From Escherichia phage vB_EcoM_ESCO10: DNA of 64,000 bases. Under the pieces are notes generated by a model. The model was not told where the DNA came from. It worked only from the letters and a program-made list of their open reading frames with translations, and did not search any database. The DNA lies in the sequence record OM386655.1; one strand, 5' to 3'. Shown here piece after piece: positions 7,394 to 63,432 of this stretch. Made by a program: the position numbers and the translations under genes. Every line of letters begins with the position of its first letter. Positions within the stretch are counted from its first letter, which is position 1.

Positions 7394-7422
7394 TATAGTA
7401 TCATGTTCCTAGAGGATGTAAA
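7394..7422 (-). promoter_or_regulatory. early promoter cassette with SD-pairing stem
   Basis: GTTTAC 7417..7422, TACTAT 7394..7399; TCCTC in the spacer is complementary to the downstream GAGGA SD. Confidence 0.6.
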
Positions 7423-7431
7423 CACCTAAAC

Positions 7432-10827: not shown

Positions 10828-11286
10828 TTAAAGATAGATTACTTTAGTGCTCGTTTTACCTTCTAAACGTTTAGAGTTAACAAATGCCATACGACATTTT
10901 AATGAATATCCTTTATCAGGATGTTTACGATCTACAGTCATACCTAACCATAAGGTTTTATCGGTAATCTCGAGACGCAGTGGACGATACACTTTACCTG
11001 GGACAATTTCAGATTCTACATCAGGCATAGGTTCCTGGATTAAAAATTCATGGATTTCTTTAACATGGTTATGGAGTTGCTTGAATAAAGCAAAAACGTA
11101 TTTTTCGTCAATTTCACGTTGGATAGCACGGTCCAATAGGTGATTAGAGTACTTAATAAAGAAAGCTGGGACTCCACTCTTAATGGCGGCTTTTTTGATG
11201 GATGTATTCAGTTCACGAAATTCGGTTTCGAACTGACGACGTAATTTGTTGCGGCGGATGAATACTTCTGAATTAATTTCTGACAT
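10828..11286 (-). CDS. regB: RegB site-specific endoribonuclease
   Basis: 152 aa; strong similarity to T4 RegB (EVFIRRNKLRR...HLLDRAIQREIDE) from memory; AGGAGAAA SD; early-promoter cassette. Confidence 0.85.
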   Translation of the reverse strand: MSEINSEVFIRRNKLRRQFETEFRELNTSIKKAAIKSGVPAFFIKYSNHLLDRAIQREIDEKYVFALFKQLHNHVKEIHEFLIQEPMPDVESEIVPGKVYRPLRLEITDKTLWLGMTVDRKHPDKGYSLKCRMAFVNSKRLEGKTSTKVIYL

Positions 11287-11313
11287 TTTGTTTCTCCTGT
11301 AGTTGATAGGTTT

Positions 11314-11342
11314 ATAGTATCATGCCTACAGGAGATGTAAAC
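11314..11342 (-). promoter_or_regulatory. early promoter cassette upstream of regB
   Basis: GTTTAC 11337..11342, TACTAT 11314..11319; inverted repeat CCTGTAG/CTACAGG (11296..11302, 11326..11332) overlapping the SD. Confidence 0.6.
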
Positions 11343-11346
11343 TGCT

Positions 11347-14176: not shown

Positions 14177-14205
14177 ATCATATCACAACTACAGGAGATG
14201 TAAAC
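14177..14205 (-). promoter_or_regulatory. early promoter cassette upstream of denV
   Basis: GTTTAC 14200..14205, 17 nt, TATGAT 14177..14182; CCTGT/ACAGG stem pairs into the SD. Confidence 0.6.
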
Positions 14206-59045: not shown

Positions 59046-59072
59046 ATGGGAGACTTCGGTCTCCCATTCTTG
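59046..59072 (+). terminator. terminator after gene 23 (UUCG tetraloop hairpin)
   Basis: ATGGGAGAC-TTCG-GTCTCCCAT followed by a T-rich tract; same hairpin occurs at 21006..21025. Confidence 0.65.
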
Positions 59073-59080
59073 TTTCTGTA

Positions 59081-59347
59081 CTATACAATCTTGACTCTGC
59101 GATTGATAATATCGCGGAAGTCAATACGATTTTCTTGGATTTTCAACCAGTTGCCGGATTTGTCTTTGGTGTGGGTAGAATATTCACCGTTCCACCAGAA
59201 GTCAGTAGCATAAGTCATGGTTTCGTATTTCTTAACTAACGCATTAACTGCATTACCGTTAGGATTGCGGCCAAATTTTTCTACCAAGGCTTTGATGTCT
59301 TTATCAAGAGCGGAAAGTGTAGTACGAATAAAGTTTAACTTGTTCAT
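59081..59347 (-). CDS. hypothetical early protein embedded between genes 23 and 24
   Basis: Start placed at ATG 59347 behind GAGGAGA SD; early-promoter cassette at 59377..59406; T4 carries segD at this position. Confidence 0.5.
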   Translation of the reverse strand: MNKLNFIRTTLSALDKDIKALVEKFGRNPNGNAVNALVKKYETMTYATDFWWNGEYSTHTKDKSGNWLKIQENRIDFRDIINRRVKIV

Positions 59348-59376
59348 TTTTAATCTCCTCATGTTTTGATAGGTCT

Positions 59377-59406
59377 ATAGTAACACGTGATAACCTTGGT
59401 GTAAAC
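59377..59406 (-). promoter_or_regulatory. early promoter cassette for the minus-strand gene between 23 and 24
   Basis: GTTTAC 59401..59406, 18 nt, TACTAT 59377..59382; conserved leader. Confidence 0.55.
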
Positions 59407-59412
59407 AACTTT

Positions 59413-59420
59413 TATAAATA
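59413..59420 (+). promoter_or_regulatory. late promoter (TATAAATA) for gene 24
   Basis: Exact TATAAATA 28 nt upstream of ATG; divergent from and abutting the minus-strand early promoter. Confidence 0.65.
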
Positions 59421-59448: not shown

Positions 59449-60729
59449 ATGGCAAAGATTAACGAATTACTGCGCGAGTCAACAACTACTACCAGCAACT
59501 CATTGGGTCGCCCTAATCTTGTTGCTTTGACCCGTGCTACCACTAAACTAATTTATCGCGATATCATCGCTGAACAGCGTACAAACCAGCCTATCGCTGC
59601 GTTATACGGTGTCAAATACCTTACCCCTGATAATGAATTTAGCTTCCAGACTGGTGCTACTTACGGTGGTGAAGTTGGTTCTAAAGACCGTGAAACTATC
59701 CCGGAATTAACAGATAAGTCCCAGGCTATTGCCAAGGGTGGCTACTTTAAGTATCAGAATGTGGTTTATAAGGCTCTCGAATCAAGCCCTCTCGCATCTA
59801 CTAGCGCTACAGAATTGTCTGAAGCCCTCCAAGAAGGTTTAGTATCATTAACGTGTCGTTTGGTTCCAGATGCAGCCCACACAGAGAAATTCGAAGCAAA
59901 CGATGTCGAAATTAGCAATGCTGTATTCCAGGTTAATAAATGGAACGCTCCTGTTAAGTCTCGTAAACTTAAAACTTCTTTGACTGTGGAATTAGCCCAA
60001 GATATGGAATCTAATGGCTTCGACGCGCCGGCGTTCTTAGAAGACCTTTTAGCTACTGTAATGGCAGATGAAATCAATAAAGACGTATTACAATCCTTGA
60101 TTACAGTATCTAAACGTTACAGAGTAACAGGTGTATCTGATAACGGAATTATTGATTTATCTTATAATTCTGCTCCAGAAGGCGCACGTAAATTGTACGA
60201 AATGGTTTGTGAGATGAATTCCGAAATTCAGAAAACTACTTCTTATTCCGGTACGTTTGTTGTTGCCTCTAGTCGTGTGGCTGCGATGCTCGCAGGTTCC
60301 GGTTGGTTGAAACATAAACCTGAAGATGAGGCTTGGCTCCCAGAAACAGCTTATGGTTATTTGATTAATGGCTTACCTGTGTTCTGTGATGTGAATAGTC
60401 CATTGGATTATGTTACCGTAGGTGTTAAAGAAGACTACGGCGGTAATGAAGTTGTTGGTTCTATTTTCTACGCCCCGTACACCGAAGGTTTGGATTTAGA
60501 CGATCAAGAACACGTGGGTGCTTATAAGGTTATTGTAGACCCGGATAGTTTACAACCTTCAATTTCTCTAATGGTCCGTTATGCACTTTCGGCTAACCCT
60601 TATACTGTAGCTAAAGACGATAAAGAAGCTCGTATTATCGACGCAACTAATATGGATTTAATGGCAGGCCAGAGTAATATGTCATATCTGCTTGGTGTTA
60701 AACTTCCTCCAATTATTTACGAGGCATAA
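59449..60729 (+). CDS. 24: gp24 capsid vertex protein
   Basis: 426 aa, highly similar to T4 gp24 (MAKINELLRESTTT.SNS.GRPNLVALTRATTKLIY...). Confidence 0.9.
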   Translation: MAKINELLRESTTTTSNSLGRPNLVALTRATTKLIYRDIIAEQRTNQPIAALYGVKYLTPDNEFSFQTGATYGGEVGSKDRETIPELTDKSQAIAKGGYFKYQNVVYKALESSPLASTSATELSEALQEGLVSLTCRLVPDAAHTEKFEANDVEISNAVFQVNKWNAPVKSRKLKTSLTVELAQDMESNGFDAPAFLEDLLATVMADEINKDVLQSLITVSKRYRVTGVSDNGIIDLSYNSAPEGARKLYEMVCEMNSEIQKTTSYSGTFVVASSRVAAMLAGSGWLKHKPEDEAWLPETAYGYLINGLPVFCDVNSPLDYVTVGVKEDYGGNEVVGSIFYAPYTEGLDLDDQEHVGAYKVIVDPDSLQPSISLMVRYALSANPYTVAKDDKEARIIDATNMDLMAGQSNMSYLLGVKLPPIIYEA

Positions 60730-62013
60730 ATGAAAAAGATTAATGCATTAATACAAGAATCAACTTTGACGGCGGCGAACCAGGTCGCCCGTCCTAATCT
60801 TCTTTCATATACCCGAGCAACCAATAAAAGAATTTTTAAAGCCCTTGTTGCTGAACAAAAAACTACTCAGCCTGTAGCAGCATTATATGGCGTCCGTGTT
60901 TTAAACCCAGATGATAAAATGACTTATCTTGGTGGAGCTACCTTCGCAGGTGAAATTGGTATGTTTGAACGTAAAAACATTCCTGAGTTCACTAATAAAG
61001 ACGAAGCCTATGCTGCTGGTGATATGTTCCAATTTGAAAGCATAGTTTTCAAGGTATTAGAAGCTTCTCCATTTGCCGGAACCACTGAAACCGATTTAGG
61101 TGAAGTTATTTCAGAAGCTATTGCAGCGGGTCATATTCGTATGATGTCTGATGCAGCCTTTACCAATAAATTTGAAAAAGGGCATCCTGAGATTGCTGAA
61201 GCCGGGTTCCGTATTGATAAGTGGCAGACTGAAGTTAAATCACGTAAACTTAAAACTTCTTTGACTGTAGAACTGGCTCAGGATTTAGAATCTAACGGGT
61301 TTAATGCTCCGGACTTTATCGACAATATTTTGGCTATCCAAATGGCTGAAGAAATCAATAAAGACGTTCTACAATCTTTAATTACCGTGAGTTCACGTTT
61401 TAAAGTCCAGGGTGTTTCCGAAAAAGGTGTACTTAATCTTACTGATGCCGCTTATGATAATGCTCAGGACCGCGCGCGTACTTTATATTACTATATGTGT
61501 GAAATGAATTCTGCGGTTCAACGCCAGACTTCTTTTGCAGGTACTTATGCAGTAGCTAGTTCGCGTTGTGCCGCTATTTTAGCTGCGTCCGGTTGGGTTG
61601 AGAAAAAAGAAGACCAGGACGAATTGGCTTATGGTATATTAAAGAATGGACTACCTCTTTATGCTGATATGAATAGTCCGTGTGATTATGTTATTGTTGG
61701 TGTAAATGCTGATATGGGTGAAGGACAGACGGTCGCATCTTTGTATTATGCGCCATATGTAGAAGGCCTGGAAAACGTAGATGATGAGGGTGATACTTCT
61801 GTAGGTGAATTTAAGGTTATTGTAGACCCGGAAAGTTTGCAACCTACCGTAGCCCTGTTGGCTCGATATGCACTGACAGCAAACCCGTATACCGTTGCCA
61901 AAGATGATAAAGAAGCTCGTATTATTGATGGGTCCGATATGGATAAGATGGCTAACCAAAGTCAATTGAGTTCTTATCTTGGTGTTAAACTTCCTCCATT
62001 GGATAAAAACTAA
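60730..62013 (+). CDS. gp24 paralog (second capsid vertex-like protein)
   Basis: 427 aa, roughly half identical to the upstream gp24 by eye (shared KSRKLKTSLTVELAQD, YAPY.EGL, ANPYTVAKDDKEARIID). Confidence 0.85.
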   Translation: MKKINALIQESTLTAANQVARPNLLSYTRATNKRIFKALVAEQKTTQPVAALYGVRVLNPDDKMTYLGGATFAGEIGMFERKNIPEFTNKDEAYAAGDMFQFESIVFKVLEASPFAGTTETDLGEVISEAIAAGHIRMMSDAAFTNKFEKGHPEIAEAGFRIDKWQTEVKSRKLKTSLTVELAQDLESNGFNAPDFIDNILAIQMAEEINKDVLQSLITVSSRFKVQGVSEKGVLNLTDAAYDNAQDRARTLYYYMCEMNSAVQRQTSFAGTYAVASSRCAAILAASGWVEKKEDQDELAYGILKNGLPLYADMNSPCDYVIVGVNADMGEGQTVASLYYAPYVEGLENVDDEGDTSVGEFKVIVDPESLQPTVALLARYALTANPYTVAKDDKEARIIDGSDMDKMANQSQLSSYLGVKLPPLDKN

Positions 62014-62038: not shown

Positions 62039-63046
62039 TTATTTGGATACTAATTCAATCCACACAGCTCGTAGCGTATCTTTAACACACTCAATGAGCT
62101 GCTTTTTAACTTCAACAGGATTTTCTGCATCGGTTAATTCTAATTCTTCACGGGACGCCTCTTCCAAAATATCTTGGACTGTTAGTCCCATTACCTTTCC
62201 GAAATCCTTAGGCGTTACTTCACCAATCTTACTGATAACATTGTTAATACGGTTAACAGTCACATAATCAGTGAATTGCCACATCAAGTCCATGTCATCT
62301 TGGGACAACACAACAGCAGCCTTGATAGGCTTATCAGACTTTTTCTTTTCACTGAATTTAGAGTTCTTACATTTAATCGCTACACGATTTCCATTTGGAA
62401 GCCAGGTAGGAACATCAGGTTTCAGTACAAAGCCTTCAGCCGTAAATACTTTGCCTTCAACCTTTGGAATAAAATCAGTCGAGTTTGCGATAGTCAGGCC
62501 TGCATTATCCACTGCAAAATTGTAATCAGGAACCACAGAATCAAAATCATTAGGGAGCTTAATAAGGTCTTCAAAGCTACCAGTAGCCAGACATGGAGCA
62601 ACTTTAAACTTATGGATAATGCAGAATGCTTCCATCAATGTATCAGTCAGAACAGATTCTGTGCCGTCGTCTTTAGTAACGCGGATATCGAACACATAAA
62701 AATCTTTATCACCATAATCAACATTCTTCTGAATACCTGAACCGGCGAACTCACCATAAATCTGGTACGACTGATAATCAATCGATTCAATTAGATGCTG
62801 AACAGATTTAATAGAATCAGCATAATTCTTTAAAACAATTTCATAGCCATAGAAATCTTCGGCTGGGAGAATTGGGCCAGTGCGCTTGGCGCATGTGACT
62901 GCGTCACGTTCTATGATTAGACTAAAGTTCGTACCATGAATCTTTTCACGAGCTACCCATTCACCATCGGTCATACCATGGGTACGGAGTTTTTCAATGA
63001 ACTTATTGTTGTAGTGGTTTTCCAGACTGCTATATTTCTTGAACAT
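62039..63046 (-). CDS. rnlB: RNA ligase 2
   Basis: 335 aa, highly similar to T4 Rnl2 ([19 protein letters not shown]...[13 protein letters not shown]... with KxHG ligase motif). Confidence 0.9.
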
Positions 63047-63133: not shown

Positions 63134-63373
63134 TTATAACACACCTAAATTTAAAGCATAATACTTTAGACCAAAAACGCGCTTAGCGCCGACCTTTTTA
63201 TTAATCAAACGTTTACGATACACTACTTTTTCTCGTGCTTTAAATTTCTCTTTGGCATTTTCAACTTCAACCCAGGCCTTACCCATTTCTTTAGCTGTCC
63301 CGCCTAAGAGCTTGGCTATTTCAATAAATGTCATACCAGATTCATGTAAAAAATGTACTTTAATCTTATCCAT
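63134..63373 (-). CDS. small basic protein with possible helix-turn-helix
   Basis: 79-aa ORF; MTFIEIAKLLGGTAKEMGKAW HTH-like segment; early-type promoter upstream. Confidence 0.45.
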   Translation of the reverse strand: MDKIKVHFLHESGMTFIEIAKLLGGTAKEMGKAWVEVENAKEKFKAREKVVYRKRLINKKVGAKRVFGLKYYALNLGVL

Positions 63374-63402: not shown

Positions 63403-63432
63403 ATCTTAACATGGGATTTTTAACTTGTAAAC
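63403..63432 (-). promoter_or_regulatory. early-type promoter for gene 63134..63373
   Basis: GTTTAC 63427..63432, 18 nt, TAAGAT 63403..63408. Confidence 0.45.

Follow-up and report, generated by a model that had tools for sequence, protein, structure and literature searches.

A reversed, putatively early transcription unit between late genes 23 and 24 of a JS98-like Dhakavirus

Escherichia phage vB_EcoM_ESCO10 probably has a self-contained early transcription unit, running in the reverse direction, between its late genes 23 and 24. We analysed a stretch of 64,000 nucleotides of this phage (sequence record OM386655.1; hereafter the window), for which an earlier note had claimed an 88-aa open reading frame (ORF) on the minus strand between the two genes, equipped with a GTTTAC/TACTAT cassette of its own that abuts and diverges from the gene 24 late promoter. 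These claims hold: the ORF is present at 59081-59347, the two hexamers at 59406-59401 and 59382-59377 on the minus strand score as a member of the early-promoter family of the phage, and the late promoter, TATAAATA, is separated by 6 bp from the -35 hexamer and by 28 nt from the downstream ATG of gene 24a (Table 1). The locus is that of a JS98-like Dhakavirus (Tevenvirinae). The 600 bp surrounding the unit share 98% identity with Escherichia phage vB_EcoM-VR5 and 92-94% with JS98, Bp7, QL01 and IME08. Tandem gp24 paralogs, as seen here downstream of the unit, are also present in JS98, IME08, VR7 and a metagenomic T4-like contig (L011); T4, G28 and PhAPEC2 have a single gene 24.

Table 1. Features of the gene 23/24 region, numbered from the first nucleotide of the window
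Feature	Position	Strand	Basis
Gene 23, major capsid protein, 519 aa	57472..59031	+	ORF list; gp23 annotated at the homologous place in JS98, VR5 and IME08
Stem-loop AUGGGAGAC-UUCG-GUCUCCCAU	59046..59067	both	Terminator call on the + strand; folding
88-aa ORF, including stop codon	59081..59347	-	ORF list; phrog_6003 match; dN/dS
Shine-Dalgarno sequence AGGAG	59355..59359	-	Sequence; GGAG kept at equal spacing in relatives
Start-site/initial transcribed motif AGACCTATCAAAAC	59363..59376	-	Alignment of 13 promoter sites
Predicted extended -10, TGT + TACTAT	59377..59385	-	TGn-TAnnAT kept in PhAPEC2, RB69, L011 and T4
Predicted -35 element GTTTACA, T4-type early hexamer	59400..59406	-	Pattern, PWM and conservation
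Gene 24 late promoter TATAAATA	59413..59420	+	Present in all loci compared
Gene 24a, vertex protein	59449..60729	+	ORF list; downstream late-gene flank
Gene 24b, gp24 paralog	60730..62013	+	Next after 24a

Judged by its pattern of substitutions, the 88-aa ORF is coding and subject to purifying selection at the protein level. Comparison with JS98, G28 and IME08 yielded dN/dS ratios of 0.05-0.09 (dS 0.44-0.51, dN 0.02-0.04). The longest minus-strand reading frame covers 59081-59362 and would encode 93 aa from its first ATG (59362). The 88-aa form begins at the ATG at 59347, 7 nt downstream of the Shine-Dalgarno (SD) sequence, in the order ATG-AGGAG-ATTAAAA-ATG. The upstream ATG overlaps the SD sequence, conservation is seen for the 88-aa start only, and the 93-aa start is probably unused. 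The 88-aa start and its SD sequence are kept in VR7, PhAPEC2 and L011, and GGAG is found at equal spacing in RB69, too. The predicted protein (MNKLNF...RRVKIV) has a mass of 10.4 kDa and a pI of 9.8. It matches the profile of phrog_6003 from end to end (E = 1.1e-48; residues 1-87 versus positions 1-87 of 90), that is the family of JS98 orf173, VR7ORF190c and RB69ORF188c/189c, and contains all residues that are invariant in this family (K3, F6, N30-G31-N32 and Q71). The base composition of the unit does not look foreign, with 38.6% GC as compared to 39.4% for the window.

By tblastn, the ORF was detected in 225 phage records. Alignments that span just residues 1-72 are likely to be artefactual, as the IME341 copy could be aligned over residues 1-86 and that of the closely related IME08 translates at full length. 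The earlier note had called for a homology search and conceded that its reading would fail if the ORF were not conserved; in view of the phrog_6003 match and these records, this objection falls. Lengths of family members stay within 83-93 aa down to 25% identity. Roughly 29 family clusters exist among 5.8 billion proteins, with sizes of 51-104 aa bar one assembly chimera of 160 aa, and a Pfam domain is on record for none of the 29. The search with all representatives also returned the long repeat proteins P0009 and P0012, which we rejected as multi-repeat, low-complexity matches, and P0010, which is the 160-aa chimera. No relatives were found in the genomes of 185,579 bacterial and archaeal species, and the family thus appears to be confined to phages. 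Scanning of IMG/VR retrieved nine loci on contigs of 155-172 kb, every one at the equivalent position. Paralogs of the protein were not found when the window and two regions of T4 (1-50 kb and 104-116 kb) were scanned.

The sequence in front of the gene has the architecture GTTTACA-N14-TGT-TACTAT (59377-59406, minus strand), with a spacer of 18 nt between the hexamers and a TG at -15/-14. The consensus for early promoters comprises a -35 box GTTTAC(A), a spacer of 17-18 nt and a -10 box TAnnnT, often with a TG upstream (PMC1524935), and the site agrees with T4-type early promoters in -35 box, spacer and -10 box. It also possesses an A/T-rich, UP-like region: TATTTATAAAAGTT directly precedes GTTTACA, in agreement with the aaaGTT-GTTTACA arrangement seen at the window's other promoters, and the late box TATAAATA, when read on the minus strand, covers about -43 to -50, which is the position of an A/T-rich UP-element. 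A generic sigma-70 scanner reported about as many sites in the window as in shuffled sequences and is hence uninformative on its own. The window contains 15 matches to GTTTAC-N16-19-TANNNT versus 3.8 expected; none of 100 shuffles reached this number, and 12 of the 15 sites are on the minus strand. Alignment of the sites at their -10 boxes revealed a long common consensus, aaaGTT-GTTTACA-N14-TGa-TACTAT-AGACCTATCAA, all of which is carried by the site at 59406; the motif AGACCTATCAAAAC following the -10 box is likewise common to this site and other promoters of the window. We also scored the site with a two-block position weight matrix (PWM) in a leave-one-out scheme, that is with a matrix trained on the 11 other minus-strand sites. 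The held-out site reached 47.8 bits as compared to a maximum of 7.1 bits in shuffled windows, ranking eighth in 128 kb (the window, both strands) and outscoring four of the training sites. When a core-only PWM was used, its score was 29.9 bits. By these measures, the 59377-59406 site is a regular member of the phage's own early-promoter family. Neither a MotA box (TGCTT) at -30 nor a minus-strand copy of TATAAATA is present in front of the ORF.

The promoter can be followed through the relatives of the phage. PhAPEC2 and RB69 have GTTTACA-N14-TGA-TACTAT, the metagenomic contig L011 has GTGTACA-N14-TGT-TATTAT, and VR7 has GTTTACA-N17-CATAAT, lacking the TG. The -35 box GTTTACA is also kept in JS98 and G28, and T4 carries ATTTACA-N14-TGA-TATTAT. 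Overall, hexamers and TG are kept and the spacer sequence diverges in the four genera represented (Dhakavirus, Gaprivervirus, Mosigvirus and Tequatrovirus) as well as in a metagenomic T4-like phage with a protein of just 25% identity. Conserved boxes that flank a variable spacer are the pattern expected of a functional promoter. For RB69, an early promoter (Pe:109605; minus strand, 109555-109605) has been predicted together with a late promoter (Pl:109573) that overlaps it (Nolan et al. 2006, PMC1524935), and the supplement of the same study lists a TransTerm terminator at 109234-109251 with the label '23-><-RB69ORF188c'. With this trio, the architecture is already in the literature as a prediction. 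In a time-resolved omics study of T4, segD was classified as 'early-RNA_middle-Protein', with SegD protein intensities rising during infection (Wolfram-Schauerte et al. 2022, PMC9697503). From membership in the promoter family, the conserved hexamers with variable spacer and the early class of segD RNA in T4, we infer that early expression is the most reasonable expectation for the 88-aa gene.

Several observations were made on other early-type promoters of the window. A second one within the late region, GTTTACA-N-TGT-TAAGAT at 63403-63432 (minus strand; 22.6-35 bits), is located upstream of a 79-aa minus-strand ORF (63134-63373) and an rnlB-like ORF (62039-63046). Thus, backward early-type units among late genes are not unique to the 23/24 gap. 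The PWM found further early-promoter-like sites at ~16985 and ~18504, both on the minus strand, which were missed by the exact GTTTAC pattern and have the variant -35 boxes GTGTACA and GATGTACA. In addition, the spacer of several early promoters (e.g. ATCTCCTGTAG) is complementary to the downstream SD region (CTACAGGAGA), as seen at 11285-11345 and 2120-2178 on the minus strand, where the predicted stems have free energies of -18 and -19.4 kcal/mol (z = -5.3 and -3.7), respectively. Similar complementarity is found at 7395-7423 and 14177-14205. Such pairing would hide the SD sequence in transcripts reading through from upstream and leave it free in locally started ones. The 59377-59406 promoter has no complementarity of this kind.

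On the side of gene 23, the unit is bordered by a hairpin (59046-59067) with predicted folding energies of -15.9 kcal/mol on the plus strand and -14.8 kcal/mol on the minus strand. A T-rich tail follows on the plus strand only, a terminator is called there, and the hairpin is predicted to act as gene 23 terminator in this direction. Its stem is kept in VR7, T4 and T2 with compensatory changes. An Rfam search with the hairpin yielded a sub-threshold match to PhrS only. For the ORF transcript, the same structure provides a 3' hairpin, but without U-tract, and the 3' end of this RNA is therefore uncertain. The leftward early transcript may stop inefficiently at the hairpin and continue as antisense RNA to the end of gene 23.

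The 23/24 slot is a polymorphic cassette site with five occupancy states. All loci compared have the gene 23 hairpin and the gene 24 late promoter as conserved borders and differ in what these enclose. The slot is empty in T2, SA20RB and most Tequatrovirus phages, where the hairpin is followed by 17 nt and TATAAATA, and the early promoter is missing as well; this state was counted as the ~450 Tequatrovirus records that match only the flanks of the T4 query at 95-99% identity. The ORF alone is present in the window, in JS98 and VR5, in G28 (Tequatrovirus), VR7 (Gaprivervirus) and PhAPEC2 (Mosigvirus), and in the metagenomic T4-like phage with the 25% identical protein. ORF and segD occur together in IME08 and IME341 as a two-gene unit behind one promoter; segD begins 3 nt past the stop codon of the ORF, whose last codons are changed (KIA* -> KAA*), and IME08 SegD is 56% identical to T4 SegD. 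T4 and 52 other records carry segD only, directly behind the homologous promoter. Finally, the ORF has decayed in the RB69 reference (NC_004928, 109,249-109,559), where frameshifts split it into RB69ORF189c (29 aa) and RB69ORF188c (41 aa). An intact 89-aa gene is found in other Mosigvirus phages, e.g. PhAPEC2, and truncated copies exist in phages mogra and 310Ecol104PP. This comparison with T4 and relatives, which the earlier note had suggested, returned the same slot with the same flanks in each case and confirmed that T4 has segD at the equivalent position. The idea of a gene-replacement site survives in part: it agrees with the presence of segD alone in T4, but the empty, two-gene and decayed states do not fit a simple either/or. 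The promoter-plus-gene unit behaves as a cassette. It resembles a moron in having its own promoter, gene and putative terminator and in being present or absent between collinear relatives, T2 and SA20RB having neither promoter nor gene. With no copy in T2 and T4 and a decayed one in RB69, the gene is probably dispensable.

The site upstream of T4 segD (~107,240-107,290 of NC_000866, with the -35 box at ~107,282) is at the position homologous to that of the ORF promoter. A portable core-only PWM derived from the window assigns it 25.0 bits, more than any other site in the 104-116 kb late region of T4 and as much as the top four sites of the 1-50 kb early region. Read counts for segD are also available in an RNA-seq table (PMC6024815). 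However, a review of T4 from 2010 stated that a segD-specific promoter could not be found by bioinformatics and that transcript levels are possibly vanishingly low (PMC2988022), which conflicts with reading the T4 site as an early promoter. The comparative case made here is that T4 segD would sit behind a conserved, inherited early promoter. A more far-reaching proposal combines two claims, namely that, with the 88-aa protein, phages possess a new structural family of early effectors directed against host defence or competing phages, and that its cassette is the 'missing' segD promoter of T4. According to this proposal, which as a whole we rate as unlikely, a homing endonuclease gene would have inserted downstream of the ORFan, giving the state seen in IME08, and subsequent loss of the ORFan would have produced the T4 state with segD inheriting the early promoter.

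Regarding the protein itself, AlphaFold2 modelling with 24 sequences gave a confident prediction (pLDDT 94.8, pTM 0.80) consisting of helices at residues 3-25 and 31-48, a β-hairpin (52-61/67-71) and a C-terminal helix (77-87). Searches for relatives of known function returned little: Pfam reported only DUF5380 (E = 0.13) and nothing consistent among 24 members, PADLOC gave no meaningful match, and a sequence-profile search of the PDB retrieved de novo helical proteins only (E > 0.05). Foldseek found no match in the PDB with a first, low-confidence model as query, and a single protein in BFVD that is 39% identical and probably a family member. Outside T4-type phages, one homolog resides among small hypothetical genes of an rV5-like phage. 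Another (83 aa; L013:3890-4252) is encoded on a metagenomic phage contig of ~50 kb, after a primase-helicase gene and before Ead/Ea22-like genes. This copy is preceded by a terminator hairpin and then its own TTGACG-N17-TATACT promoter, and thus represents an independent unit in a non-T4 phage. The autonomous promoter, the early-region context elsewhere, the dispensability and the small size without catalytic motifs suggest that the 88-aa protein probably serves as an early accessory factor, dispensable and acting through binding to some partner; we make this assignment with low confidence. A role specifically in host takeover or counter-defence is a tentative suggestion, and a rather doubtful one. 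Strand, promoter class and the absence of the gene from T2 and T4 make a role in head assembly unlikely.

Our preferred model for the unit is as follows. Just after infection, unmodified host RNA polymerase containing sigma-70 would recognize the GTTTACA/TGT-TACTAT promoter, whose A/T-rich upstream region would double as the complement of the gene 24 late promoter. Transcription would start near 59370 and generate an RNA of ~320 nt in which a 22-nt leader containing AGGAG precedes the 88-aa ORF; this RNA would be ended at or stabilized by the 59046-59067 hairpin. Later in infection, one and the same hairpin would terminate the strong late transcription that proceeds rightward through gene 23. 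The small basic product, like other early ORFans of T4-type phages, might bind a macromolecule of the host or of a competitor and thereby contribute to takeover or counter-defence in some hosts.

Alternative explanations of the locus were considered. The unit could be chiefly regulatory, either by providing antisense RNA to the 3' end of gene 23 via read-through of the U-less hairpin or by holding polymerase at the early promoter, which would block the abutting gene 24 late promoter as long as the early one is active. Such a function would be in keeping with the missing U-tract on the minus strand, with a late box that falls within the upstream part of the early promoter, where 6 bp separate it from the -35 hexamer, and with the fact that T4 retains the promoter though the ORF is gone. 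However, strong purifying selection acts on the encoded protein, its homologs occur in unrelated genomic contexts, and T2-type phages run genes 23 and 24 without any such unit, all of which renders a chiefly regulatory role improbable. A second possibility is a tie between the 88-aa protein and SegD, as partner or modulator of the nuclease or as landing site or target in homing, in place of a role as independent accessory factor. More than 200 phages have the ORF without segD, T4 has segD without the ORF, and no seg gene is adjacent to the homologs in the rV5-like and 50-kb phages. What would speak for the tie is the arrangement in IME08 and IME341, with segD starting 3 nt past the stop codon of the ORF and altered last codons, and the position of T4 segD behind the ORF's promoter. 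This proximity, however, is explained by the habit of free-standing homing endonuclease genes to insert in intergenic gaps beside conserved genes (PMC2988022), and we judge a functional link to be highly improbable.

It may also be asked whether the cassette is used early at all, the gene being expressed at middle or late times, for instance as an accessory of head assembly, or being silent. The location inside the head-gene cluster could be taken in favour of this, and early timing in the present phage is an expectation derived by analogy. Against it, a TGCTT box at -30 and a minus-strand TATAAATA are both missing before the ORF, the site scores as a typical early promoter, the strand is opposite to that of all head genes, and the gene is absent from T2 and T4 and has an early or replication-region location in other phages. 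Of the explanations considered, we regard this one as the most improbable. A self-contained early unit remains our preferred reading.

This arrangement is an ordinary feature that has already been annotated and, in relatives, predicted: the gene is recorded as hypothetical protein in the GenBank entries of JS98, VR5, VR7 and others, and the ORF names and the PHROG identifier are not mentioned in the literature searched. The closest counterparts, RB69 Pe:109605/RB69ORF189c-188c, JS98 orf173, VR7ORF190c and PhAPEC2 gp220, share family, 23/24 position, orientation and hairpin with the unit in the window. For RB69, the early promoter has likewise been predicted and overlaps the late promoter of gene 24 (PMC1524935), but frameshifts have left two short ORFs in its reference copy, whereas the copy in the window is intact. 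The T4 segD locus is alike in slot, minus-strand orientation, homologous hairpin and homologous promoter position. However, segD encodes a 223-aa GIY-YIG homing endonuclease that is unrelated to the 88-aa protein, and both coexist in IME08. Pfam detected no GIY-YIG domain in the 88-aa protein or in 23 homologs, and the predicted fold comprises three helices and the β-hairpin.

The unit can further be compared to the PeSL + ORFan cassettes of RB49 and phi1 (Arbiol et al. 2010, PMC2839356) and to the 'morons' of lambdoid phages, with which it shares presence or absence between collinear genomes and, putatively, transcriptional insulation from its neighbours. In a PeSL cassette, however, a stem-loop is located in or adjacent to the early promoter, forming one intergenic motif of ~100 bp (PMC2839356). 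This is not the case here: the promoter region (59340-59410, minus strand) folds with -7.3 kcal/mol, which is no better than shuffled sequences (z = +0.69), and the only hairpin of the unit is ~300 bp away past the ORF rather than inside the promoter motif. Moreover, there is no pair of PeSLs around the unit, whose location is the conserved virion module and not a hyperplastic region. Thus, it works like a PeSL or moron ORFan cassette with its own early promoter, yet it is not classed as a PeSL.

Taken together, our data describe a unit whose practical value is modest. The 88-aa protein is an orphan with a confidently predicted fold that would be cheap to test for effects on host range or anti-defence; there is no sign yet of anything unusual. 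The analysis also illustrates that promoter classes of T4-type phages are recognizable from sequence alone. For the biology of these phages, the 23/24 slot provides a clean example of a cassette slot, with its five states of occupancy, in an otherwise rigid virion module. In addition, it yields a comparative argument that T4 segD lies behind a conserved early promoter that a review called not found (PMC2988022). If true, inheritance of this promoter would explain why segD is the only seg gene of T4 that faces backwards and is made early.
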